From: a virus
Lineage: Duplodnaviria; Heunggongvirae; Uroviricota; Caudoviricetes
IMG/VR virus record: IMGVR_UViG_2778261632_000005
Location: 1 to 42,705 of that record
DNA length: 42,705 nucleotides
Reading direction: 5' to 3' (one strand)
The notes beneath the pieces were generated by a model. It had not been told where the DNA came from, did not search any database, and worked only from the letters and a program-made list of their open reading frames with translations. This document shows positions 1,417 through 42,528 of the stretch, in pieces; position 1 is the first letter of the stretch, and every line of letters begins with the position of its first letter. A program made the position numbers and the translations under genes.

Positions 1417-1701
1417 TTAGCTTTGGTGGAACAGCATAGAGCGGCCCGGGTGAGACATCAAAACAGCGCCAGCGTATATCACAGGTTCTTTCTTCACCTT
1501 CTTTGTGCCAGTCAACGACATCTGCCACTGGCTCGGCGTTCCTACCTGCCAACACTCATCTACTACCTTCAACATATCCGCGAGAATGTAAGCTCTGTTC
1601 CCGCCGTTTGAGTACTGGGTATCATGCTGCAGGTGTTCGCGTATCTGGTGCAGTCGATCGAGTGATGCAGGACCGTGCGCCGGGTGGTTGTTAGTTGTCA
1701 T
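1417..1701 (-). CDS. Hypothetical protein (94 aa)
   Basis: ATG overlaps the TGA stop of the upstream methyltransferase gene (ATGA coupling). Confidence 0.5.
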   Translation of the reverse strand: MTTNNHPAHGPASLDRLHQIREHLQHDTQYSNGGNRAYILADMLKVVDECWQVGTPSQWQMSLTGTKKVKKEPVIYAGAVLMSHPGRSMLFHQS

Positions 1702-2477
1702 GCTGCACGCTCCTGATTATTTATTTCTACGCAGCACGCTGAATGCTGCAGCTGCCACTCGCGGAACTTGTCCATTTCCAAGGGCTTTAATTCTGTCCAC
1801 CCGATGGGCCACCCCATTAGCCACTCGACCCATTCCGGGTTCAGTGGGCCAGTTACCGTATCCAGCTGCGGTGCAAATGACGGGATTCTGGATGGCGTAT
1901 TTACCTGCTGCGCTAAGCTGGTTCCCGTCATCTTCTCTGTGTACAGCCTCCCCGGTTCGCGTCGCTCGCTGATGGCGTTGTCCACATCCTGTGCGACGAC
2001 CCAAATTCTGTCTCGCTTGTGAGGCGCTCCAGCGTCGAGTGCTGAAATACGACACCATTGCGCGTCATACCCCATTTCGGCAAGGTCACCAACGACCACT
2101 GCAAGTCCTCTTCTAACAAGCAACGGTGAGTTTTCCACGAGCACGAAGCGCGGTCGAACCTCACTGATAATTCTTGCCATGTGCCGCCATAGTCCAGATT
2201 TCTCGCCATCAATTCCCGCTCCCTTTCCAGCGGCGCTAATGTCCTGGCATGGAAACCCTCCAGAAACGACATCAACAATTCCTCTCCATGGCTTTCCGTC
2301 AAAACTGCGCACGTCAGACCAAATCGGGAAAGGTCTGAGGATTCCATCGTTTTGTCGTTGCGCGAGAACTTGTGCGGCGTAGGCATCACGTTCAACTGCG
2401 CAAACTGTGCGCCATCCAAGGAGGTACCCTCCGAGAATTCCTCCGCCAGCGCCTGCGAAAAGAGCCAACTCATTCAC
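1698..2477 (-). CDS. DNA (cytosine-5)-methyltransferase, short orphan type
   Basis: Motif I FAGAGG, motif IV GGFPCQDIS (PCQ catalytic Cys), motif VI VLVENSP, motif VIII HKRDRIWVV; no adjacent restriction endonuclease gene. Confidence 0.85.
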   Translation of the reverse strand: MNELALFAGAGGGILGGYLLGWRTVCAVERDAYAAQVLAQRQNDGILRPFPIWSDVRSFDGKPWRGIVDVVSGGFPCQDISAAGKGAGIDGEKSGLWRHMARIISEVRPRFVLVENSPLLVRRGLAVVVGDLAEMGYDAQWCRISALDAGAPHKRDRIWVVAQDVDNAISERREPGRLYTEKMTGTSLAQQVNTPSRIPSFAPQLDTVTGPLNPEWVEWLMGWPIGWTELKPLEMDKFREWQLQHSACCVEINNQERAA

Positions 2478-3761: not shown

Positions 3762-4802
3762 TTATTGATAGTTTGCATTGGTATGTACCTGCTGAAGTTT
3801 GTGTTGTTTAACGAAGTGGGCCACTGCTTTTGACTGGCTGGCGATAATTTTTCTGTCACCTAGGTCGAGCGTGACGTTCTTACCGCGATAAATTATTGCC
3901 GAGCCGATTTCCTTACCGTCCAGCTTCACATACAGCACTTTCCCGATAATCTCTGTCGTAGGGATTGGCTGTGAAAGGCGATATGTTTCGCGAGCTTCAG
4001 CAATGGTTTTATGTTCGTCGATTATCGACAGGGCTTCAGCCAGAGCCGTGCCTTGCAAAGTGAACACGCCTTCATCGCTGATCGTCGCCATGGCCATCAG
4101 TTCCACGAAACGGCGAGCACTTTTAATGTTGAGTTCCGGAGCGATAGAACTGCGCGTAACCTTTGTTTTCCCCTGGGCGGCGGCTACGGCTTTATCGTGT
4201 TGGAGAACTTCACCAGCCTGTTCGCCAAACTCACGAACTCGGTCAACGGCAACATCAACAGACACAGCCCCTGATTTAACTTCCTGCTGAACGTCATGGT
4301 TCGCTGTGCTGAGTAGAAGAAGCTTTTCTACGGTGGCTACAGATTTGTTTACCAGCTTTGCAATCTCGCTGGTGGTTTGGTTGAAAGCATTATGAAGCTC
4401 CTGAATAACAGCAGCCTGTTCAATATCGGAAAGGGGGAGTTGGTTATTACTGGTCATGATGCGAGCCAGCCGCTGCACATCGTTACCGTTAAACGGCATG
4501 ATATGAATACGGTCTACTGGCTTACCAGCTTCAGCACAACGCGCATAGCAACGGCGACGGCGATGGCCTTCAACAACCCACACTCCACCTTCATCACGTG
4601 CGATAACCTCCAGCGGAGGAACGGTTCCACCGTTCATCAGATAGTTAAACAGGTCGTCATCTGCCTGGCGGGTGCGTTCGTCGTCTTCACGCTTGTTGAA
4701 ACCTTCACGCACGTGGATATGTTCAAGGCTGATAAACATCCCGGTATCGGTGCGCTTGATGGTCCCATCACGGGACATCTGTTTGAATGAGTTGGCGGCC
4801 AT
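3762..4802 (-). CDS. ParB-like nuclease-domain protein
   Basis: 346 aa; N-terminal ParB/Srx-like motif VVEGHRRRR; start ATG overlaps the stop of the upstream gene (TAATG). Confidence 0.7.
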   Translation of the reverse strand: MAANSFKQMSRDGTIKRTDTGMFISLEHIHVREGFNKREDDERTRQADDDLFNYLMNGGTVPPLEVIARDEGGVWVVEGHRRRRCYARCAEAGKPVDRIHIMPFNGNDVQRLARIMTSNNQLPLSDIEQAAVIQELHNAFNQTTSEIAKLVNKSVATVEKLLLLSTANHDVQQEVKSGAVSVDVAVDRVREFGEQAGEVLQHDKAVAAAQGKTKVTRSSIAPELNIKSARRFVELMAMATISDEGVFTLQGTALAEALSIIDEHKTIAEARETYRLSQPIPTTEIIGKVLYVKLDGKEIGSAIIYRGKNVTLDLGDRKIIASQSKAVAHFVKQHKLQQVHTNANYQ

Positions 4803-5628: not shown

Positions 5629-5705
5629 TGGTGCAGCATGCAGGATTCGAACCTGCGACCCACGGCTTAGAAGGCCGCTGCTCTATCCATCTGAGCTAAT
5701 GCCAC
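5629..5705 (-). tRNA. tRNA-Arg (anticodon UCU), prophage-borne
   Basis: 77-nt cloverleaf read on the minus strand: D-arm GCTC/GAGC, anticodon loop CUUCUAA, T-arm GCAGG-UUCGAAU-CCUGC, 3' ACCA; the acceptor stem has two adjacent G-U pairs. Confidence 0.8.
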
Positions 5706-6691: not shown

Positions 6692-6746
6692 AAATGTACC
6701 TTTAGTTACCATCATGGTCAAGTAAGTTAATGTACTTTTTGTTACC
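6692..6746. promoter_or_regulatory. Two tandem operator-like repeats (putative OL / pL region)
   Basis: AAATGTACCTTTAGTTACC (6692-6710) and TTAATGTACTTTTTGTTACC (6727-6746); a third copy at 7501-7521. Confidence 0.55.
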
Positions 6747-6798
6747 TTGGTGGCGAAAAAAAATGCCAGAATGATATCTGGCATTAGAAATGAGTTAC

Positions 6799-7458
6799 TT
6801 AGATGTTCTGCGTTATCTGAACAACTTTGCCTACAATGCGGCAATTGCCATCAATGGGGATCGGCTTAAAGGCGGGATTAAGCGGCATGAGATATGAGTA
6901 AGGGCTATCCCAAACAAGTTTCTTCACAGTCGCTTCTGCTGAACCATCAAGTATTGCAACGACAATTTTCCCATACAGGTCATCAAGTTGTCCGTAATGT
7001 GGCTCAACAATAACGATTGAGCCCTCCGGAATTGATGGAAGTCCATGTGGGTTAGTCATTGACTCACCACGAACTACCAATCCGAAAACTTCATCAGAAA
7101 CGTTTGCTGTGGTTTGAGTCCATGAAATCACATCAGTAAGCCTTGAACATGCATAGGTATCAGTCCATACCCCGGCCTGAACAGCAGAGATAATAGGAAC
7201 GGCGGTAGGTGGCTTCAGGTATGGGATAACTTTGGTGTCATCTTGAGTCTCATCACCCTTGCCGTAAAGAATCCATTCAGGAGTGGTCTGTAAAGCCATC
7301 GCTAGTTGGTGAAGGTTTTCTCCGTCAGGCTTAGTTGTACCGTTCTCCCATTTGGTAACGGACACTCTACTCACCCCAAGGCGTTTAGCCAGGGTCTGCT
7401 GAGTTATATCGAGCTGGACTCGCCGGGATCTTATTCGGTCTTTCATCTCTGTTTTCAT
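6799..7458 (-). CDS. cI: Prophage repressor, cI-like (HTH plus LexA-type S24 autopeptidase)
   Basis: N-terminal HTH (QQTLAKRLGVSRVSVTKWENG), Ala-Gly cleavage site (VQAGVW), Ser nucleophile GESM and Lys (TVKKL). Confidence 0.9.
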   Translation of the reverse strand: MKTEMKDRIRSRRVQLDITQQTLAKRLGVSRVSVTKWENGTTKPDGENLHQLAMALQTTPEWILYGKGDETQDDTKVIPYLKPPTAVPIISAVQAGVWTDTYACSRLTDVISWTQTTANVSDEVFGLVVRGESMTNPHGLPSIPEGSIVIVEPHYGQLDDLYGKIVVAILDGSAEATVKKLVWDSPYSYLMPLNPAFKPIPIDGNCRIVGKVVQITQNI

Positions 7459-7550
7459 GTAACCAATGTTACATTGATTCCTTGTAACTGTTGTTTGCTA
7501 TTTAATGTACCTTTTGTTACCTTTAAGGCGTGAGTTAACCAGGAGGAACC
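7459..7550. promoter_or_regulatory. Divergent repressor/cro promoter-operator region (OR-like)
   Basis: Third operator-like repeat TTTAATGTACCTTTTGTTACC at 7501-7521 plus GTTAC/GTAAC half-site-like motifs at 7465-7490; AGGAGG RBS before cro. Confidence 0.55.
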
Positions 7551-7748
7551 ATGTTTAAAACTGACGTCATAGAACACTTCGGAGGGGTATCAAAAACCGC
7601 GAGTGTTTTGGGAATTTCCCATCCTGCAGTGTGCAGATGGGGTGATGTGATCCCTCAGAAGCAAGCTTTTGTTATCGAACGTATCACTAAGGGCAAGCTT
7701 AAATACGATGCCAGCCTTTACCAAAAGTCTACAGACACAGCAGCTTAA
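7551..7748 (+). CDS. cro: Cro-like small HTH regulator
   Basis: 65 aa, divergent from the repressor; HTH (SKTASVLGISHPAVCRW); AGGAGG RBS. Confidence 0.7.
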   Translation: MFKTDVIEHFGGVSKTASVLGISHPAVCRWGDVIPQKQAFVIERITKGKLKYDASLYQKSTDTAA

Positions 7749-7773
7749 ACATAACTACCAAAGGAAAAACAAG

Positions 7774-8238
7774 ATGGTAGAGCAAACCCTGAAGGAAGTA
7801 GTGAAAGCGATGTGCAAGGCGTACCCCGGAGGCCGTCAGGCTATGGCTGGTGCGTTGGGCATGTCAGAAACCCAGTTCAACAACAACCTTTACGAGAAAA
7901 ACGGTTGTCGTTTCTTTGAAGTCACCGAGTTGGAAGCGATGGAAGACATTTCCAACACGTCATTGGTTGCTGACTACTTTGCCAAGCGTCGCGGCGCACT
8001 GCTGGTGGACGTACCAAACCTGGAAGATCTGGACCGTGTTGACTTGTTCAGCCGTGCAATGCGCACAGCAGCTGCAAGAGGGCAGGTTGATCAGATTATC
8101 CAGAAGGCGCTTGAGGATGGAGTTATTGAAAAGCATGAAGCCGAAGAGATTCAGGAACATCACCGCCGTCATCTGGCAGCGCGTGAAGAAGAAATCCGCG
8201 CGATTGTGGCCTTATTCAGCCGCCGTCAAAAGAAGTGA
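7774..8238 (+). CDS. CII-like / YdaT-like regulator
   Basis: 154 aa immediately after cro; AAGGA RBS; the ORF is open from 7669 but the first ATG with an RBS is 7774. Confidence 0.55.
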   Translation: MVEQTLKEVVKAMCKAYPGGRQAMAGALGMSETQFNNNLYEKNGCRFFEVTELEAMEDISNTSLVADYFAKRRGALLVDVPNLEDLDRVDLFSRAMRTAAARGQVDQIIQKALEDGVIEKHEAEEIQEHHRRHLAAREEEIRAIVALFSRRQKK

Positions 8239-8299
8239 CGCCAGCGAGTGTGCAGCTCCAGGCGTCGTGGCGTGTCGTATTCAGTGGAGAAACTAACGC

Positions 8300-8638
8300 A
8301 TGAACAGTGTAACAACACAGTACCGCAGGTCGCAACTTATTGCTCGACCTATGCCGGGTGGAAAAGGCCCGGCGCAGTTCGTGTATGGGGTAATGGTATC
8401 CGGATGCTTTGAGCCTGTCTGCTACCAGTTTGCCGATTGGGTTGTAGGTGATTTCAACGGCCAGGCGGAGAAGGTCGAATGCGAGCACTCAACAGACGGT
8501 TCAAAGACAGCTACGGCGTCCCAGTCAGGGTTATCCGGTGGGAGCCAGAAACTCAACGGGTTATATACCTGCGCGACGGATACGAGCATGAGTGCTTCAG
8601 TCCTCTCGAACAGTTTCAGCGTAAATTCAGGGAAATAG
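8300..8638 (+). CDS. Hypothetical protein (start supported; C-terminal extent doubtful)
   Basis: GGAGA RBS before the ATG at 8300; the C-terminal third is Ser/Thr-rich, looks like off-frame translation, and overlaps the next ORF. Confidence 0.35.
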   Translation: MNSVTTQYRRSQLIARPMPGGKGPAQFVYGVMVSGCFEPVCYQFADWVVGDFNGQAEKVECEHSTDGSKTATASQSGLSGGSQKLNGLYTCATDTSMSASVLSNSFSVNSGK

Positions 8639-8691
8639 AGGATCAGAATGAGCCTGTTAATGACATCCCGGCCCATAGTAATAAATCCTGA
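8479..8691 (+). CDS. Hypothetical small protein (70 aa)
   Basis: GGAGAAGG RBS; protein-like composition; overlaps the start of the replication gene. Confidence 0.4.
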   Translation: MRALNRRFKDSYGVPVRVIRWEPETQRVIYLRDGYEHECFSPLEQFQRKFREIEDQNEPVNDIPAHSNKS

Positions 8692-9568
8692 CCTTGCATA
8701 CAGCATTGGCCTGAATGAGGCGATTGCTTTGCAGCAGATTAATTACTGGCTGCAAGAAACCAAATCGGGCATGGAAAGTGATGGTGTTCGCTGGATTTAC
8801 AACACGACAGAACAGTGGCTGGAGCAGTTCCCGTTCTGGTCTGAGTCGACCCTGAAGCGTACCTTCACCCGCCTGAAGACACTCGGTGTGCTCAAAATTG
8901 AGCAACTGAACAAGTCCCAACGCGACATGACCAACTTCTACACAATCAACTATGAAAGCGAGCTTTTAGATGAAGTCAAAGTGACCGAATCGAAGAGGTC
9001 AAAATGTGCTCTTCCATCAGGTCAAAATGACACGATGGAAGAGGTCAAAGTGACACGCTCCATCAGGTCAAAACGAACCGATGTCATCAGGTCAAAATGC
9101 ACTGATGATCTTACAGAGAATACAACAGAGAGTACTACAGAGATTACAGGTAAAGACTCTTGTCCGGTTGCGGTGCAACCAGACCGAGATGTGTTGATTA
9201 CTGATCAGGCTAAACAGGTTTTGGTTCACCTTAACCAGGTCACGAACTCACGCTACCAGGTTTCAACCACGTCTCTGCAAAACATCCGTGCACGTATCGG
9301 CGAAGGGTTCACCGTTGCAGAGTTGTCGCTGGTGGTGGATTACTGCAACGCGAAGTGGGGTGATGACCTGAAGATGTCTGATTACCTGAGACCACAGACG
9401 CTTTTCCAGCCGTCCAAGTTCCCGGGATACCTCAAGTCTGCAAATAACTGGGACAAAGCTGGCCGCCCAGAACGAGTGAATGGCGAGTGGGCCCGCGAAG
9501 ATGGCATCTTCAAACCCAGCTTCAAGAACACTGATTACAGCGCTATTCCACCAGGGTTCAGGGGGTAA
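8648..9568 (+). CDS. Replication initiator, lambda O-like
   Basis: 306 aa in the replication position after cII; contains an internal iteron array; GAGGA RBS. Confidence 0.7.
   Translation: MSLLMTSRPIVINPDLAYSIGLNEAIALQQINYWLQETKSGMESDGVRWIYNTTEQWLEQFPFWSESTLKRTFTRLKTLGVLKIEQLNKSQRDMTNFYTINYESELLDEVKVTESKRSKCALPSGQNDTMEEVKVTRSIRSKRTDVIRSKCTDDLTENTTESTTEITGKDSCPVAVQPDRDVLITDQAKQVLVHLNQVTNSRYQVSTTSLQNIRARIGEGFTVAELSLVVDYCNAKWGDDLKMSDYLRPQTLFQPSKFPGYLKSANNWDKAGRPERVNGEWAREDGIFKPSFKNTDYSAIPPGFRG
8971..9099 (+). repeat. Origin-like iteron array inside the replication initiator gene
   Basis: Six direct repeats with core GTCAAA(A/G)(T/C)G at 8975, 8998, 9021, 9044, 9067 and 9091 (23-bp period, last 24), with alternating GAAGAG/CATCAG flanks. 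Confidence 0.75.
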
Positions 9569-9570
9569 CG

Positions 9571-10014
9571 ATGAGCATTCTGAAAATGGTCCAGATGTTT
9601 ATTGCCATGAACCCCGGCTCAACGACCAGGGACATCATCGAAGGTCTGACCCAGTTCAGCCAGGACAGGCTACAACTCGCCGTTTGCCGCCTGCATGGTT
9701 CTGGGCTGGCCACGCGTAAACGCGACGGTCGCCAATTCCGTTACTACGCGGAACCGCCAGCAGATTGCCACTTCGAAGTGTTTGAACCAACTCCTGAAGT
9801 CAGCGCCTTGATGGAAACGGCGAAAGGTCTGGAGTCGAAAGATCTCTTTCACCGTGCCGCGACGATTTACATGGAGGCGTTCAGCGCATCAGCCATTGAA
9901 TCAGAGCGAGCAGCAATACTGGCAGAACGTCAGCGCTGCCTTGGCCTGGCTAAACCAGCAGTTATTGCCGAAGACGGATGCTATCTGGCTGGTCGATTTT
10001 CGGGAGGCCGTTAA
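9571..10014 (+). CDS. Hypothetical protein in the lambda-P position (147 aa)
   Basis: Follows the O-like gene; no Walker motifs, so not a DnaC-type loader. Confidence 0.5.
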   Translation: MSILKMVQMFIAMNPGSTTRDIIEGLTQFSQDRLQLAVCRLHGSGLATRKRDGRQFRYYAEPPADCHFEVFEPTPEVSALMETAKGLESKDLFHRAATIYMEAFSASAIESERAAILAERQRCLGLAKPAVIAEDGCYLAGRFSGGR

Positions 10015-10682
10015 TGAACTATTCACTGATTTACGCCGATCCACCGTGGGAATACGGGAACACTATCAGCAATGGCGCAGCGGAAAACCATTACGGCACG
10101 ATGAAACTCATCGACATTAAACGCCTTCCTGTCTGGGAACTGGCCGCCGAAGATTCAGTTCTGGCTATGTGGTTCACCGGTACACATACCCGTGAGGCGA
10201 TCGAACTGGCTGAAGCATGGGGTTTTAAGGTTCGGACCATGAAGGGATTCACCTGGGTGAAGTTCAACTCACTGGCAGAACAGCATATCAATAAAGCGCT
10301 TCAGGCTGGTGGAGTAGAGGACTTTTACGACTTCCTTGACCTGTTGAACGCTCAGACCCGAATGAACGGTGGTAACTATACCCGCGCCAACACCGAGGAT
10401 CTGTTAATCGCCACCCGTGGTAAAGGGCTGGAACGGTTAAACGCGAGCGTGAAGCAGGTTATCTACAGCCCACTTGGTGAGCATAGCCAGAAGCCAGCAG
10501 AAGCGCGTTACCGTCTGGAGCAGTTATATGGCGATGTGTCACGCATTGAGTTGTTCAGCCGCTGCGCGTCCCCCGGCTGGCATCACTGGGGAAATCAGGC
10601 AGAAAACCCTGATGTAATCATGTTCCCTGGTTACGTTGCTAAACCTGCTCCGCTGCTGGAGGTGGCTTATGCAGGATGTTGA
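10014..10682 (+). CDS. DNA N6-adenine methyltransferase, MT-A70 / phage Dam-like
   Basis: DPPW catalytic motif (LIYADPPWEYG) near the N-terminus; GGAGG RBS; ATG overlaps the upstream stop (TAATG). Confidence 0.8.
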   Translation: MNYSLIYADPPWEYGNTISNGAAENHYGTMKLIDIKRLPVWELAAEDSVLAMWFTGTHTREAIELAEAWGFKVRTMKGFTWVKFNSLAEQHINKALQAGGVEDFYDFLDLLNAQTRMNGGNYTRANTEDLLIATRGKGLERLNASVKQVIYSPLGEHSQKPAEARYRLEQLYGDVSRIELFSRCASPGWHHWGNQAENPDVIMFPGYVAKPAPLLEVAYAGC

Positions 10683-16753: not shown

Positions 16754-17017
16754 TCATTACAAAGCTCATCTGCTGGTGGACTATAAACAGATAGCATTAC
16801 AGCAGGCATTCACTGAGTGCCTGTGATAATGTCAAATTGTGGTGAATGCGCAGGCTGATGCGCGTGCAACAGCTACTCATTGAAACGGTAGTTATGTCGG
16901 AGTTCAGCACCGGCCACCACACCTAATTGAATTGTCAGTGGCTAGGGTAGCTCCTGAAAAGCGGCATCGTCACCGCCTGCCACTGATAACATGACGAGCA
17001 ACTAAGACGAGGTTGTG

Positions 17018-36417: not shown

Positions 36418-38514
36418 ATGACCACTTATAACACCGGCAATCCGCTGGGGTCTGCTGCTGCAAAAGATTTATACGATAACGCTCAGAACTTTGATCATCT
36501 GTCGAATGATCTTGAAAATGAGATGTGGCCTGACCGATTTGGGAAGAGCAGGTTAACTTGGCATGGAATGGAAAAAAGATACCAGGAAAAGCTGGTGTCT
36601 ATGGGGTGGGAACTGATTGATTCATTTCAGGGAGGAACTACGTTAACGAGGGCAGATCAGGCGTTGCGTTGGGAATTACCTGATGGGGATGGAGAGTATT
36701 ACCGCTGGGATGGCTCTCTGCCTAAAACAGTCCCTGCCGGTTCTACACCAGATTCAACAGGTGGTGTTGGCACTGGCGCATGGGTTGGAGTTGGTGATGC
36801 ATCTCTTAGATCTGATCTAACAAAATATGGTGCAACGGTTGACCAGATAGCGCATCGGGTTACAACACTGAAATCTTTTGAAGAGTTTGGTGCGATTGGA
36901 GATGGGGTTACTAATGATACAGCCTCGATGCTGGCAGCGCTGGAATGGCTGAAAGATGTCCCTTTCGGTAAATTGGTTGGCAGACCTGGCGCAAATTATC
37001 TAATCACACAAAGCCTCGTCATGAAATTTGACGGCTCATACACTCAAGATGTAACGTCAACTCGCTATCTGGATTTTACTGGGACAGTGATTGTGGCAGG
37101 CGCCGATAATATCACTTGCATTCGCATGAGCCATGATTTCTGCCATATCATCAATCCTGTAGTAATTAACCCAAATAACTATTCCGACGTTATCGCCTAC
37201 GCTATTGCACCAGAAACCGAATCTCAGACTACCATACGCGTGTCACAGCAATTCTGTGTAATGGAGAATCCACGAGCACGGGGAACTAAGATAGGCCTTA
37301 AGTTTAAACCAGGGCCTACAGTCGGTGGGAGTAATAGCGGTGCGTATTACCACTCAATTATGAATCCTAATTTTGAGAGAGTGGATTGCGGATTCTATTT
37401 CGAGCGCAGCGTAAGCGGAGACAATAACAACACAAGGATTCATATCTTCAATCCAGTTCATATAACCGGTAACTGTGCTTTTTGGATCGAAAGCACTGAC
37501 TCACTACGCGTTTACGGTGGATCATGTGAAAATATCACATTGGGAACCTGGCCGGCTGACGTGCCATGCGCAGTCCGTGTTGTAAAAACAGTAAGCACAG
37601 ATACACAGGTCGCTGGAAACCTACATTTCTACGGATATCTTGGAGAAGTTTGTCACAGAGCCTATCAAATAGATACAAATGTAGGAACCTACGAAAACTA
37701 CTTTGATTGGAAATGGGTATTAATTAATGAAAACCCATATCGCGCACCAGGACAGGATGGGAATTTCGTAGCACGATTTGATGGGGAAATTCTTAGTAGT
37801 AGCTGGGACAACAGTGCTCTTAACGTAGTAGGGTGTAGAAACCCACATACAGGACATCAGGCAATAATCATCCAAAATCCAGATGAGACGCCAGCAGAAC
37901 TTTGGAGTAATACTGGGTGGAAATTTACCGCAACAATTTACGATTGCCCGGCACAAAATTTACAACATAGTAATAGCCATGAACAGATATTAGGGGCATT
38001 GTATGCTGGATTGACGCTTACAACCTATCCTGATAGCAGGAGAATAATGTTAACAAGCAAGGAGGGGGCTGATGGGGTTGAGAGACCACAAAATGATCTG
38101 ATAATTAATGGATTTAACAGGCTATGTGCAGAAAATGATAATGATACCGCTCTTGGTGATTCTGATAGACGGTGGAGTGTTGTTTATGCAGCTACTAGTT
38201 CAATAGTTACATCTGATGAGGAGCATAAAACCTCTTTTCTATCAGATGATAATACTTTAGAAAGAGAGAAGAAGGCAGCTAAGGAAATTAAAAGCTGTAT
38301 ATTTCGGTATAAGTTTAAAAAAAGCATTGATAAAAAAGGAGAGGGGGCCCGTCTTCATTATGGAGTGGGGGCGCAAACTGTTGGCGAAATTATGAGGAAG
38401 TATGACCTGAATCCGGATAATTATGCTTTTTGGTGCAGAAACAAAACAAATGAAGGCGATAGGTATGGTATCAGATACGAAGAGTTAATTATGTTTCTGA
38501 TGGTTAACGCATAA
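36418..38514 (+). CDS. Tailspike / side tail fibre with C-terminal intramolecular chaperone-like domain
   Basis: 698 aa; central region looks like a beta-helix depolymerase domain; C-terminal 110 aa resembles peptidase-S74 autoproteolytic chaperone domains (TSSIVTSDEEHKT ... GARLHYGVGAQTVGEIM ... YGIRYEELIMF). Confidence 0.6.
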   Translation: MTTYNTGNPLGSAAAKDLYDNAQNFDHLSNDLENEMWPDRFGKSRLTWHGMEKRYQEKLVSMGWELIDSFQGGTTLTRADQALRWELPDGDGEYYRWDGSLPKTVPAGSTPDSTGGVGTGAWVGVGDASLRSDLTKYGATVDQIAHRVTTLKSFEEFGAIGDGVTNDTASMLAALEWLKDVPFGKLVGRPGANYLITQSLVMKFDGSYTQDVTSTRYLDFTGTVIVAGADNITCIRMSHDFCHIINPVVINPNNYSDVIAYAIAPETESQTTIRVSQQFCVMENPRARGTKIGLKFKPGPTVGGSNSGAYYHSIMNPNFERVDCGFYFERSVSGDNNNTRIHIFNPVHITGNCAFWIESTDSLRVYGGSCENITLGTWPADVPCAVRVVKTVSTDTQVAGNLHFYGYLGEVCHRAYQIDTNVGTYENYFDWKWVLINENPYRAPGQDGNFVARFDGEILSSSWDNSALNVVGCRNPHTGHQAIIIQNPDETPAELWSNTGWKFTATIYDCPAQNLQHSNSHEQILGALYAGLTLTTYPDSRRIMLTSKEGADGVERPQNDLIINGFNRLCAENDNDTALGDSDRRWSVVYAATSSIVTSDEEHKTSFLSDDNTLEREKKAAKEIKSCIFRYKFKKSIDKKGEGARLHYGVGAQTVGEIMRKYDLNPDNYAFWCRNKTNEGDRYGIRYEELIMFLMVNA

Positions 38515-38525
38515 GTAAATTAATA

Positions 38526-38553
38526 CCCCCCGCACTATATAATTATACGGGGG
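38526..38553. terminator. Hairpin between convergent tailspike and gtr genes (possible bidirectional terminator)
   Basis: CCCCCG / CGGGGG stem flanking an AT-rich 15-nt loop. Confidence 0.45.
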
Positions 38554-38558
38554 TTATA

Positions 38559-39995
38559 TTAGAATCTAATAACTACAATATTATCAACGAGATATATTGC
38601 AAATACATTACCTGCATATAAGGTGGTTTTGTCATTTGCTTTTAGTAAAATTTCATCACGTTTATCATTATTTGCATAGGTAATATCATTTAGCCCGTTC
38701 CTCATTAAAATAAATCTTCCACCATCATAACCCCAAGAAAATGTGTCAAGCATCATGTTATTCATGAATGGATAAATGTTAATGGTTGACTCCATGACTC
38801 CAGAATGTTGTGGGCGCCCATCAATAATAAATTCTTTATGCTTTGATAAATTCAACCTGTCAAGATTACTCACTATCCTGGTTGCTAAAGATTCTGCATA
38901 TCTAAAATCTTCTCGCACTGCATTTGTAGATGCACATAAAAAAAGATAATTAGTAAAGTAAAAAAATACCGCTGGCGCAAGCCATAGCCATTTACGTTTA
39001 AAAGAACAGCACAACGCATAAAGACAGAAGAAGGATGCAGCAGAAATCCCTATAATTGTTCGTGGTATGATTGATGGATTTTGCCCATACACTCCAACTC
39101 CTGGTATAAACGTGACAAGTGCACATAAAACAATAACTATCGTCAGAAAGGTAAATAATGGTTTTGTTGATCTAAAGCACATAACGCATACAGCAACAAC
39201 AAACGCAGCGCACATGATTGCAATCGGGTATAAAAATGGTGAGTCTAGTAGTTTTAAAATGAGTATGTATGAGTTTTTGTAATTATTAAGAACTGTTTCA
39301 AGTCCCGAATAAGTCAATGGAACGATTTTATTGAAATTCAAAAAGTAATAACTTACATTAGTTATTGGGATAATAACTTTAAGGTATGCTATAGTGCCTA
39401 AAAGAAATGTTAAAGCTCTAATTATCAATACTTTGGTTATGTTTTTATAATTTTCTTTTTTTACATAAGCTCCCATGAATATCTCAATAGCGGATAGACA
39501 TATAAATAGTGCTATTGCAGCTTGGTAAAGAGAAAGGCTGGCAACAAGAGCCGTTACTGACAAAACAAAAGAAGATATTTTGTTAGTGTGTAAAATATAA
39601 GGCGTAATTGCCATGGTTACAGATAGAACCATAAAGAAGGAATCATATCTGAATAATAAATTAGAAACAAAAAAAGGAGATGCTAAGAAGCATAAAGATA
39701 GCACTATTGCTTTAATCCCTTTGCTCCCTATAAAGTATTCACATACTTTTAAAGATACTGCACTATAAAGGATTAATGCCAGAATTGTCATTCCTGGGAA
39801 GTAGTCAGGAAGAACATCTCCTGTAGTAATTGTTCTATATATAGCTTCTGCAAGAGGTCGTCCATCTCCTTGCCATCCATAATATGACCATACCGACCTA
39901 AATATGTCGTCATTATAATAACTAGTTCCTAACAGTAATGGAATGGCATAAAATAATGTCAGTCCAGCAGCAATAACTATATGTCTATTAGGCAT
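38559..39995 (-). CDS. Serotype-specific O-antigen glucosyltransferase, GtrC-like polytopic membrane protein
   Basis: 478 aa, about 10 predicted TM helices, strongly AT-rich coding sequence, immediately downstream of gtrA-gtrB. Confidence 0.75.
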   Translation of the reverse strand: MPNRHIVIAAGLTLFYAIPLLLGTSYYNDDIFRSVWSYYGWQGDGRPLAEAIYRTITTGDVLPDYFPGMTILALILYSAVSLKVCEYFIGSKGIKAIVLSLCFLASPFFVSNLLFRYDSFFMVLSVTMAITPYILHTNKISSFVLSVTALVASLSLYQAAIALFICLSAIEIFMGAYVKKENYKNITKVLIIRALTFLLGTIAYLKVIIPITNVSYYFLNFNKIVPLTYSGLETVLNNYKNSYILILKLLDSPFLYPIAIMCAAFVVAVCVMCFRSTKPLFTFLTIVIVLCALVTFIPGVGVYGQNPSIIPRTIIGISAASFFCLYALCCSFKRKWLWLAPAVFFYFTNYLFLCASTNAVREDFRYAESLATRIVSNLDRLNLSKHKEFIIDGRPQHSGVMESTINIYPFMNNMMLDTFSWGYDGGRFILMRNGLNDITYANNDKRDEILLKANDKTTLYAGNVFAIYLVDNIVVIRF

Positions 39996-39999
39996 GATA

Positions 40000-40920
40000 T
40001 TACCTCTTATTCTTCTTTATAAGATATTTTGGCCTTTTTTTGGTTTCTAAATATATTCTACCAATATACTCACCAAGTACTCCAATTCCTATTAATTGAA
40101 TTCCACCAAGAAACAGAATAGACACTAGCAGGGATGGATAGCCCCGTACGGCGTTACCAAACGCTAAAGTGTTGAATATCATCCAGGCGCCATACAAAAA
40201 AGCGCAACCGGCTACCACTAGCCCAATATACGTCCAGATGCGAAGCGGGAAGGTCGAGAAAGAAGTTATGCCTTCTAGTGCTAAATTCCATAGTTTCCAG
40301 CCATTAAATTTTGAGTCTCCGGCAACACGTTCAGCTCTTGCATACTCAACAACATCAATTTTCCCACCAACCCATGACAAAACACCTTTCATGAAGAGAT
40401 TGCGCTCAGGAAGCAGTTTGATGTTTTCAACAACTTCGCGTGACATCAGGCGAAAATCACCCACGTTCTCTTCAATTTTTGGGTTGCTAATTTTGTTGTG
40501 TAGCTTGTAGAACCACTCAGCAGATTTGCGCTTTAGCCTTCCATCGGTAGAGCGGTCTGTTCTTTTAGCCAGAACCATATCAGCGCCATCCTGCCACTTA
40601 GCAATGAGGTGCGGGATGACATCGATAGGGTCTTGCAGATCAACATCGATTGGGATGACTGCTTCGCCGGTAGCATTATCGAGACCTGCGAATAGGGCAG
40701 GCTCTTTACCAAAGTTTCTGGTGAAAGATAGAGGTACCACCAATTTGTCAGAGACAGCAAGTGCATTGATGATGGATTCTGTTGAATCGCTGCTCCCGTC
40801 GTTAATAAATACAATCTCAATGTCGTACTCTTTTAGGCCTTCAAACTCGCGTACCGTTTTATAAAATATAGGTATTGTGGCCTCTTCGTTAAAGACCGGA
40901 ACAACTAAAGAAATTTTCAT
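40000..40920 (-). CDS. gtrB: Bactoprenol glucosyltransferase GtrB (GT2)
   Basis: 306 aa; GT2 motifs ([24 protein letters not shown]) and two C-terminal TM helices. Confidence 0.85.
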
Positions 40921-41279
40921 TTCGCATCCCTAAAGACAATGAATTTCGAGTAAATAAATCCGCATACCAAGCTGATCGCGGAAAAAGCAACCAGGGTGAC
41001 AATAGGTGGGAGTGCGCACAAATCAGCCCCCCAGCCAACAGCAGCGCTTAATGATCCCATAAAACCGACATATAACATGTAGCGCAGCATTGTTGTCGAT
41101 GAATTGAATGTGAATTTGGCATTGGCATAAAAACTGAACGATACAGCTACGGCAAATCCAGCCAGGTTCGCTAGAGCCTGATTTGTGTGCAATACGTAGA
41201 TGCAGATTGCAAACACAACCCAGTGGATAAGCGTATTGATGATGCCGATAGATGTGTACTTAGCGAATAGCTTTAACAT
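40917..41279 (-). CDS. gtrA: GtrA flippase-like small membrane protein
   Basis: 120 aa from MLKLFAKYT, 4 predicted TM helices; stop overlaps the gtrB start; ORF open to 41342. Confidence 0.8.
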
Positions 41280-41495
41280 TATAAAAATCAGTGAATTCTT
41301 AGAGGCCGAAAGTTTAGCATTTGAAAGTGGATCGATCGACATATCATGTTAATTTGGTGAGACAAAAACGGGATACACAAAGCTTTGCATCGGTTTGCAA
41401 GGCTTTGCAGTGCCCACCTATGACACATTCTCATGAAGAGCTCAGCAGTAATTATTGATAGGCAGCGCCGCATTGATCTGCAATCATTTTAAAAC

Positions 41496-41515
41496 TACTG
41501 TATATAAAAACAGTA
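41496..41515 (+). promoter_or_regulatory. LexA operator (SOS box)
   Basis: TACTGTATATAAAAACAGTA matches CTGT-N8-ACAG; lies 18 nt upstream of the next ORF. Confidence 0.8.
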
Positions 41516-41532
41516 AAAGATTGGTGAAAATC

Positions 41533-41772
41533 ATGCCACGCCGTTCAGATATTAACGCTGCATTTTCGTCAGCAGTACAACAAAACCAGAAAGGATATCA
41601 GTGCTTACGCACAGACGACTTCATCCGAGAGTTAGCGAAAGTGCACTGGCATTTCAGCCGTGTCGATGCTAACTCCTGGATAGAGCGATACCAGCCAGAT
41701 TTTGCCGACAAGACCACGGACAACAGTGATAACCGTTACTGGATCCTGCGCAATATGGGAAGGGTATTCTAA
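41533..41772 (+). CDS. Small SOS-box-preceded protein upstream of a UmuD-like gene (ImpC-like by position)
   Basis: 79 aa; stop overlaps the downstream ATG; the ImpC label is an inference from operon architecture, not from sequence. Confidence 0.45.
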   Translation: MPRRSDINAAFSSAVQQNQKGYQCLRTDDFIRELAKVHWHFSRVDANSWIERYQPDFADKTTDNSDNRYWILRNMGRVF

Positions 41773-42160
41773 TGGGATTTACTTCACCTGCAGCAGATTA
41801 CGTTGAAACAAGGATTTCCCTTGATCAGCAGTTTATCAGTCAGCCCGCAGCGACTTACTTTATGCGAGCATCACGTTCACATTTCAGGTAAGGGATAATC
41901 CTGGGGGCGCTGCTTGTTGTGATGCGTCACTTTCTCCATGTGATGGCTCGTTGCTGATATGCGCGATAGACGGAGAATTCAGGATCAAGCGATATCGGAC
42001 TCATCCTCAGCCCCACCTGGTTAATCTGGAGAACGGGAGAAGGGAGGCGCTGCCAGCAGATGATGACGGTTACAGTTCTGCACCCGCTATATTCGGAGTG
42101 ATCACGTACATCATTAATGATGCCAGGAACGCGGAGTTTGATGACTGCCCGGTAATGTGA
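41772..42160 (+). pseudogene. UmuD/ImpA-like S24 peptidase gene, apparently disrupted
   Basis: N-terminus MGFTSPAADYVETRISLDQQF...ATYFMRAS ends at TAA (41889-41891); the C-terminal part (AIDGEFRIKRY...FGVITYIIND) continues in another frame; no umuC-like gene follows. Confidence 0.6.
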
Positions 42161-42528
42161 ATAGCTTAAATTGTGCGAGGATTTTAACCTCATTCACCTG
42201 ACTCGTTATGGCTATGTTGAGACCAAAAAATATTTCACCATTGTACCTCCTAGATGATTATAAGTTATTGATTAAGTTGATCTTAAAATCATGAATTATT
42301 GGCGAAAAAACGGTGTAACTTGTTGATAGTGCTTGATAACACGCATGATTTAAAATCCCTTTATCGTGAAAGGGCTGATAGGTACAGGCACTTGTTTTTG
42401 CCCTCTAAAACGGTTATCAAAACCAAAAAACACACATTGATAATCAATCGGTTAGGGGAATGCTGAAAGCCAGTTGATTTACAATAAAATTATAGAATTA
42501 TTTTTATTTATCATGTGGTTGTATATGA

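Follow-up and report, generated by a model that had tools for sequence, protein, structure and literature searches.

In the bacteriophage lambda, the replication origin consists of iterons, an AT-rich tract and a palindrome (PMC3349717), and HHpred assigns an HTH_36 N-terminal domain and a Phg_2220_C C-terminal domain to its initiator O (PMC5509034). In plasmids of the RepA_N type, iterons are semi-palindromes that converge on a poly-A tract (PMC7145576), the Rep boxes of pSK41 are located centrally within rep, where the encoded segment is a dispensable linker (PMC5703833), and the C-terminal domain of the initiators is host-specific (PMC5703833, PMC7145576). The repeats within gene 18 of phages P22 and L are the presumed origins of these phages, and for SPP1 binding of gp38 to the oriL repeats was shown, with an AT-rich unwinding element adjoining the repeats (PMC8022706, PMC6316719). 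In a study of 2025, 34 of 314 lambdoid phages carry 'O-only' replication modules, none of which has been studied and whose mode of replication is not understood, and phages that have no Rec module and many Chi sites form the LLS class (PMC12315714). Here we describe a set of six iterons within the predicted replication initiator gene of a lambdoid prophage, the virus record IMGVR_UViG_2778261632_000005 of IMG/VR, which was analysed over its whole length of 42,705 bp (hereafter the window). The region 8969-9184 of the window is very likely a lambda-type replication origin that is embedded in the prophage's own initiator gene; the six repeats almost certainly serve as binding sites for this initiator, as comparison with related sequences indicates.

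Iterons within the initiator gene

When both strands of the window were scanned for the core GTCAAARYG, six matches were obtained, all of them on the + strand, with starts at 8975, 8998, 9021, 9044, 9067 and 9091 and with the last core ending at 9099, whereas about 2.1 scattered matches would be expected by chance. The core-to-core spacing of 23, 23, 23, 23 and 24 bp is exactly the one given in the original prediction, which had been made from the sequence of the window; the array start that it placed at 8971 has to be corrected, as the first core begins at 8975. If one mismatch at most was allowed, occurrences of the 12-mer AGGTCAAAATGA were confined to the array in a search of the whole window, and neither a second motif cluster nor operator-like iteron copies were found elsewhere in the window. 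Tandem Repeats Finder detected the array with a period of 23 (64% matches, score 66) and with a period of 46 (78% matches, score 128), making it the top-scoring tandem repeat of the window. The features of the region are:

8648 to 9568 (+): replication initiator gene, 306 aa, containing the candidate origin
8648 to 8977 (+): N-terminal winged-helix domain, aa 1-110, the predicted iteron reader
8969 to 8991 (+): iteron 1, GATGAAGTCA AAG TGACCGAATC, core at 8975, 7 of 10 arm positions symmetric
8992 to 9014 (+): iteron 2, GAAGAGGTCA AAA TGTGCTCTTC, core at 8998, 8 of 10 symmetric
9015 to 9037 (+): iteron 3, CATCAGGTCA AAA TGACACGATG, core at 9021, 8 of 10 symmetric
9038 to 9060 (+): iteron 4, GAAGAGGTCA AAG TGACACGCTC, core at 9044, 6 of 10 symmetric
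9061 to 9083 (+): iteron 5, CATCAGGTCA AAA CGAACCGATG, core at 9067, 7 of 10 symmetric
9085 to 9107 (+): iteron 6, CATCAGGTCA AAA TGCACTGATG, core at 9091, 8 of 10 symmetric, preceded by one extra base
9108 to 9161 (+): A-rich low-stability tract, candidate DNA unwinding element
9113 to 9148 (+): three tandem 12-mers ACAGAGAnTACn, encoding TENT TEST TEIT
9162 to 9184 (+): palindrome GTCCGGTTGC ggt GCAACCAGAC, with 10-nt arms that are 90% complementary
9218 to 9436 (+): C-terminal Phg_2220_C domain, aa 191-263, matching Pfam PF09524 (1.9e-20) and PHROG 22793 (1.7e-86)

The 9-mer core had been taken as the repeat; the true unit is larger, a semi-palindrome of 23 bp made up of two 10-bp arms converging on an A-rich centre of 3 bp. 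Arm symmetry averages 2.49 of 10 across the window and reaches at least 8 at 0.06% of positions, and the summed dyad score of 44 out of 60 at the spacing of the array is unique in the window. The units share the inner arms GTCA/TGAC, and in the six outer bases a GAAGAG type takes turns with a CATCAG type; it is this alternation that causes the 46-bp period. The alternating flanks noted earlier are therefore real and constitute the outer arms of the 23-bp dyads.

As had been predicted, the array (8969-9107) lies inside the initiator open reading frame (ORF), where it occupies about aa 108-154 and its first iteron begins 327 nt past the start codon. That the encoded protein is a phage replication initiator is supported by matches to PHROG 428 (5.6e-66), a family labelled 'replication initiation protein', to PHROG 6493 and to two O-like families, PHROG 391 (1.9e-15) and PHROG 678 (2.5e-8), by the Phg_2220_C domain, which is the sole Pfam match of the protein and presumed to be the part recruiting the host machinery, and by the position of the gene after those for CI, Cro and CII. 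Of the two O-like families, lambda O matches PHROG 678 over its N-terminal part (aa 1-172) and PHROG 391 only over its C-terminal part (aa 140-292). The closest database relative of the initiator (97% identity) stems from Citrobacter freundii and many further relatives are found in Enterobacter; in RefSeq, close relatives are labelled only 'conserved phage C-terminal domain-containing protein' or 'transcriptional regulator'.

DNA-level constraint and exchange of the N-terminal domain

Column entropies were calculated for 105 distinct relatives, and 87 distinct arrays were used for alignment and for the analysis of pairing. At codon positions 1/2/3, entropies amounted to 0.087/0.048/0.632 in the N-terminal domain, an ordinary coding pattern, to 0.064/0.106/0.292 in the iteron cores, where silent positions are protected, and to 0.36/0.30/0.24 in the spacers, which show no codon periodicity. 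The most conserved unit is iteron 3, and throughout CCATCAGGTCAAAATGA (9014-9030) column entropy stays below 0.1, with three singleton variants. Since the repeat length of 23 nt is not divisible by three, the identical core is translated in three frames, yielding VKV, RSKC and GQND, and a weak 23-aa protein repeat (EVKVT...) arises from the 69-nt super-period. The 87 distinct arrays can be aligned free of gaps, with invariant length and spacing. The lack of indels together with the lack of a coding-type codon periodicity therefore places the constraint on the DNA, and the array evolves as an element of the DNA that overlies a linker tolerant of change. The 'repetitive linker' of the original prediction was thus correct in substance, since the segment displays relaxed, non-coding-like variation and has the lowest pLDDT values (22-26) of a full-length AlphaFold2 model that is poor overall. 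This full-length model, obtained with 23 close homologues, was discarded as unusable (pLDDT 45.5).

For aa 1-110, a confident AlphaFold2 model built from 26 diverse family members (pLDDT 85.5, pTM 0.76) presented a helix-turn-helix and a beta wing. In Foldseek, the top solved structure was 4pql_B (E 6.4e-4, TM 0.65/0.56, rmsd 3.0 over 102 columns), and further matches were 4pt7 and 5kbj, the latter a Rep-DNA complex, all being N-terminal domains of staphylococcal RepA_N initiators. According to this model, the N-terminal domain folds as a winged helix of the RepA_N / DnaD-N type, and its nearest counterparts are the iteron-binding domains of RepA_N proteins. Searching the PDB by sequence, either with the protein or with the profile of its N-terminal domain, gave chance-level or weak PadR-like matches only, and the domain matched no Pfam family. 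A weak hhalign link (probability 74%) connects it to the HTH_36/DnaD_N-type N-terminal domain over the recognition helix and the wing, and a BFVD fold search returned many phage replication proteins, with lambda O outside the top 50. The family of the N-terminal domain comprises 9721 clusters at 50% identity (E <= 1e-3). Some of its proteins, of 400-880 aa, contain two tandem copies of the domain (P0128, P0130, P0133, P0154 and others); among ten such proteins sampled, eight (P0128, P0130, P0133, P0137, P0145, P0173, P0211, P0252) had no Pfam match beyond the domain, or none at all.

The N-terminal domain and the array are inherited together. In Klebsiella phages, both are present at 88% nucleotide identity up to position 9189 and are joined to a divergent variant of Phg_2220_C. 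In the E. coli phages HannyBb and mEp460, both are present at about 80% nucleotide identity up to position 9143 and are followed by a C-terminus of the lambda O type (PHROG 277, 3.8e-28, and PHROG 2357). The C-terminal domain of the window, from the palindrome onward, also occurs joined to two further types of N-terminal domain, each of which has its own repeats at the equivalent position of the gene: the type starting with MSRIFDIV possesses CCGCGAAAGTGCGG-like repeats every ~22-23 bp, and the type starting with MSTKLTGYVWD, which matches Pfam HTH_36 and DnaD_N, possesses the repeats CATCAAAATCTGATG / CCTCAAAATTTGAGG (loci of the alternative types: L105, L114, L137, L139, L151 and L156 at nt ~1800-1960, and L154 and L159 at nt ~1790-1960). 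Repeats change with the N-domain type across C-terminal partners and therefore, by the classical lambdoid argument, the N-terminal domain and the iterons would form one specificity module that is swapped as a unit.

More distant relatives, with N-terminal domains of 37-64% identity, include the 'DnaD-like helicase loader' of Staphylococcus phage P954, the 'O family protein' of Erwinia phage PEp14 and a protein of Pseudomonas phage AF. Their genes carry 2-6 repeats with a period of 21-24 bp at nt 310-450, and most of these genes have a CAAAWTG centre flanked by phage-specific inverted arms, as in TGCTCAAAATGAGCA, GTGTCAAAATGACAC or GGGCAAATTGCCC.

The initiator of Escherichia phage HannyBb (L002, 2956-4384) is a natural hybrid that combines the N-terminal domain and six iterons of the window type with a C-terminal domain of the lambda O type. 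The next annotated gene in HannyBb is Ren-like, and a P gene is not present.

Downstream elements, alternative explanations and a proposed mechanism

Directly 3' of the array, the tract 9108-9161 has a GC content of 35%, compared to 47.5% for the window, and its top strand is 43% A. Within 8901-9300, no other stretch of 40-60 bp is less stable, and the tract falls into the 97th-98th percentile of the window. Its 12-mers ACAGAGAnTAC were detected by Tandem Repeats Finder (period 12, score 51) as the third strongest tandem repeat of the window, adjoining the array, and the three exact matches to ACAGAGANTAC in the window all lie in this cluster. In 17 of 18 distant relatives (L164-L184, at ~nt 370-490 of each initiator gene), the element directly adjoins the repeats on their 3' side, in 2-4 copies with a spacing of 12-13 nt, and it is shared by phages P954, AF and PEp14 from Staphylococcus, Pseudomonas and Erwinia despite their differing outer iteron arms. 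The two other types of N-terminal domain that are joined to the window's C-terminal domain lack the element. Among close relatives, the entropy of the 12-mers at codon positions 1/2/3 is 0.000/0.290/0.104. In the distant relatives, glutamate is encoded by 29 GAG and 2 GAA codons inside the 12-mer cluster, as opposed to 116 and 193 outside of it (p = 6e-10), and where copies are spaced by 13 nt, CAGAGA is translated in three frames. Both the bias in glutamate codons and the frame shifts therefore indicate that the 12-mers are constrained at the level of the DNA.

The tract with the 12-mers is likely the unwinding element. We put forward more tentatively, as an idea that we consider possible rather than probable, that the 12-mers form a second family-wide and sequence-specific origin element, which would act in a strand-specific manner as a signal for single-strand binding or for unwinding. 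Such a signal may be read by a conserved part of the initiator family and may be comparable to the DnaA-trios or the 13-mers of RK2; if true, an 'O-only' phage might thereby load the helicase of its host with no loader of its own.

The palindrome that follows encodes CPVAVQPD at the junction with the C-terminal domain and is situated at the exchange point between N- and C-terminal modules. Its stems are kept and its loop codon varies in relatives with three types of N-terminal domain, and the similarity to the Klebsiella phages stops just past it. It may be a recombination junction, an origin boundary or a protein motif. Very probably, the functional region extends to 9184 and includes the 12-mers as well as the palindrome. 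No DnaA box occurs near the array, the sole match to TTWTNCACA in the window being at 39587, and relatives do not retain the single Dam site, the GATC at 9107.

Could the repeats merely encode a repetitive, flexible protein linker, with the DNA having no function of its own? The segment is coding, lies between two folded domains, shows the lowest pLDDT values and contains the weak 23-aa repeat. However, the 23-nt period gives different peptides in three frames, third codon positions vary far less in the cores than in the N-terminal domain, the spacers are devoid of codon periodicity, length and spacing of the array are the same in all 87 distinct sequences, and the repeats change with the N-domain type and not with their linker neighbours; we therefore regard this explanation as hardly credible. 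It is also very improbable that the inverted repeats, instead of being binding sites in duplex DNA, work by forming hairpins or cruciforms, be it in mRNA or in single-stranded DNA, for instance in translational control, pausing or priming. RNA 8965-9110 does fold at -45.7 kcal/mol (z = -3.9 compared to shuffled sequences) and folding of DNA 8965-9190 reaches z = -3.8, yet such a folding potential is expected anyway from an array of dyad-symmetric protein sites. In the 87 distinct relatives, moreover, predicted pairs are kept at 90.4%, compared to 90.2% in shuffles, with 102 of 500 shuffles reaching the observed value; the effect of variation is mostly to disrupt pairs (21 of 87 sequences retain 47-77 and 23 of 87 retain 99-117), true double changes occur at one pair only, and no Rfam family matches the array region. 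Compensatory changes in unit 5 of HannyBb had been considered and were not upheld across the 87 sequences.

Another explanation is that the repeats bind either the initiator or some other product of the phage, for example the ParB-like protein encoded at 3762-4802, for control only (autoregulation, titration, incompatibility or partition) and that replication starts elsewhere. A ParB-like protein is indeed encoded in the window, and plasmid iterons and cloned lambda iterons are reported to inhibit by titration as well (PMC3349717, PMC4488673). On the other hand, the motif forms a single cluster in the window, the conserved low-stability element with the 12-mers always comes immediately after the array, and the array co-varies with the N-terminal domain of the initiator across phages of very different hosts. 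Furthermore, origins are located at the equivalent position in lambda, Stx phages, SPP1 oriL and pSK41, and presumably in P22 and L (PMC7466680, PMC8022706, PMC6316719, PMC5703833). A role in control only is thus quite unlikely.

We therefore favour the reading as a lambda-type origin, which builds on the observed anatomy of the region, the DNA-level constraint, the co-inheritance of repeats and N-terminal domain and the modelled fold of that domain. The proposed arrangement of an origin within the initiator gene is supported by the mid-gene iterons, the constraint on DNA, the exchange of modules, the low-stability tract and the palindrome. As to its function as the probable replication origin, every prediction that could be tested at the sequence level came out as expected, while the protein is not a member of Phage_rep_O and there is no P-like partner. 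Several points weigh against this reading. Comparison of the initiator with lambda O gave a BLASTP E of 0.9 and hhalign of family profiles against lambda O was negative; likewise, no match to Pfam Phage_rep_O (PF04492) was obtained in the initiator at E <= 0.01, whereas lambda O itself matches this family at 5.7e-36. The A-rich tract is moderately AT-rich (62-65% AT), far less extreme than that of lambda, and the differing outer arms of the units (GAAGAG or CATCAG) are unusual if one dimer is to read all of them. There is no helicase or loader gene for the step after melting, and a simple promoter/terminator scan of 6700-10200 detected no sigma-70-like promoter and nothing else of relevance for an origin. 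Support for binding or replication in this family is all comparative.

If the region is a lambda-type origin, the N-terminal winged-helix domain would bind, probably as dimers, to the six contiguous 23-bp semi-palindromes of 8969-9107, each site having the form arm-GTCA-AAA-TGAC-arm. The A-tract centres and a spacing of about two helical turns would let the bound array bend and wrap, and wrapping would destabilise the adjacent tract 9108-9161 with its three ACAGAGAnTAC 12-mers so that the strands could open. The Phg_2220_C domain might then bring in host replication proteins; the phage encodes neither a helicase nor a helicase loader. Rightward early transcription from the region of the Cro promoter would cross the origin, as it does in lambda. 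Binding, bending, melting, recruitment of a helicase and the part played by transcription are proposed here by analogy to lambda O and to RepA_N initiators.

Prophage context and comparison with known systems

In the early region of the prophage, a gene for a CII-like activator and one for a DUF4222 protein are located between cro and the initiator gene, which is followed by genes for a 147-aa protein, an MT-A70 methyltransferase, a small repressor, RusA, Ant, an HNH endonuclease, Q and lysis proteins. Pfam and PHROG matches revealed no gene for a helicase or a helicase loader (P-like or gp12-like) in the early operons and, judged by its sequence, the replication module would consist of a single gene and be of the 'O-only' type. 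The window contains 17 Chi sites GCTGGTGG, 16 of them on the + strand, where 1.4 would be expected; their positions include 901, 1245, 4368, 8001, 9328 and 24494, and one site (9328-9335) lies inside the initiator gene. Further features of the prophage are:

1698 to 2477 (-): DNA methyltransferase
3762 to 4802 (-): ParB-like protein
5629 to 5705 (-): tRNA-Arg (anticodon TCT) in the early-left region
6799 to 7458 (-): CI-like S24 repressor
7551 to 7748: P22-type Cro
9571 to 10014: ORF of 147 aa in place of lambda's P, matching PHROG 1324 'transcriptional activator' and no Pfam family
9978 to 10682 (+): second DNA methyltransferase, of the MT-A70 type, directly 3' of the replication genes
16935 to 16999 (+): match to the Rfam int-alpA RNA (43.2 bits, gathering score 35.8), 3' of the lysis genes
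~38200 to 42500: strongly AT-rich block with the least stable DNA of the window, at the prophage end
38559 to 39995, 40000 to 40920 and 40917 to 41342 (-): three ORFs within this block, which looks like foreign cargo

In its design, the origin described here is ordinary, with a textbook lambda-like layout that is found in a little-studied type of phage without a helicase-loader gene. What is added is the delineation of a probable origin (8969-9184) for an unstudied class of replicons that is common among prophages of Citrobacter, Enterobacter, Klebsiella and E. coli, and a family-wide 12-mer beside the iterons, which is amenable to testing and may serve as a signal for unwinding or for single-strand recognition. 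Origin and initiator together constitute a minimal two-part system for asking how 'O-only' phages recruit the host helicase.

In gene O of lambda, as in this array, iterons lie midway in the initiator gene, beginning 348 nt past the start codon in lambda and 327 nt past it here. The lambda iteron TCCCTC AAAAC GAGGGA and the unit GGTCA AAA TGAC of the window are both dyads around an A-rich centre, and the lambda iteron TCCCTCAAAACGAGGGA has the same design as the CAAAWTG-centred repeats of the family. The spacing is 20, 24 and 23 bp in lambda and 23, 23, 23, 23 and 24 bp here, with a shared range of ~20-24 bp. In both cases, a strand-asymmetric A-rich tract and then a palindrome (GTCAGAG...CTCTGAC in lambda) are found 3' of the iterons, a recombination junction lies just to the right of the origin (in lambda as annotated junctions), and the N-terminal domain and the origin behave as one specificity module (PMC3349717, PMC7466680). 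The number of six iterons is that of the origins of the Stx phages 933W and P27. In contrast to lambda, the units of the window are contiguous 23-bp semi-palindromes with alternating outer arms, the putative unwinding tract is 62-65% AT and has three 12-mers, where lambda has a 38-bp tract of high AT content, and no gene for a P-like loader is present.

The RepA_N initiators of plasmids such as pSK41 and pTZ2162 (4PQL, 4PT7, 5KBJ) are the best structural matches of the N-terminal domain, and the array agrees with the description of RepA_N iterons in being central in the gene, semi-palindromic and A-rich at its centres. The initiator of the window did not match Pfam RepA_N (PF06970), and it differs from these plasmid systems in belonging to a temperate phage, in having Phg_2220_C rather than the C-terminal domain of pSK41 and in having six units as opposed to four Rep boxes. 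In gene 18 of P22, gene 18 of phage L and gene 38 of SPP1, repeats of phage-specific sequence also lie inside the coding region of the origin-binding protein. The sequences of those repeats and the protein families differ from those of the window and, unlike the window phage, P22 (gp12) and SPP1 (gp40) encode a helicase of their own and SPP1 a loader as well.

With the LLS or mEp460-type 'O-only' phages, the window shares a single-gene replication module and many co-oriented Chi sites, and mEp460_4F5, a member of the 'O-only' class, has the same N-terminal domain and array at ~81% nucleotide identity. The survey of lambdoid phages contains no description of an origin for the 'O-only' type (PMC12315714), and for the window the probable origin is delineated from sequence only. 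The comparative data tie origins of lambda-type phages and of RepA_N-type plasmids into one architecture, which comprises a winged-helix domain, semi-palindromic, A-centred iterons within the gene and an exchangeable C-terminal domain.

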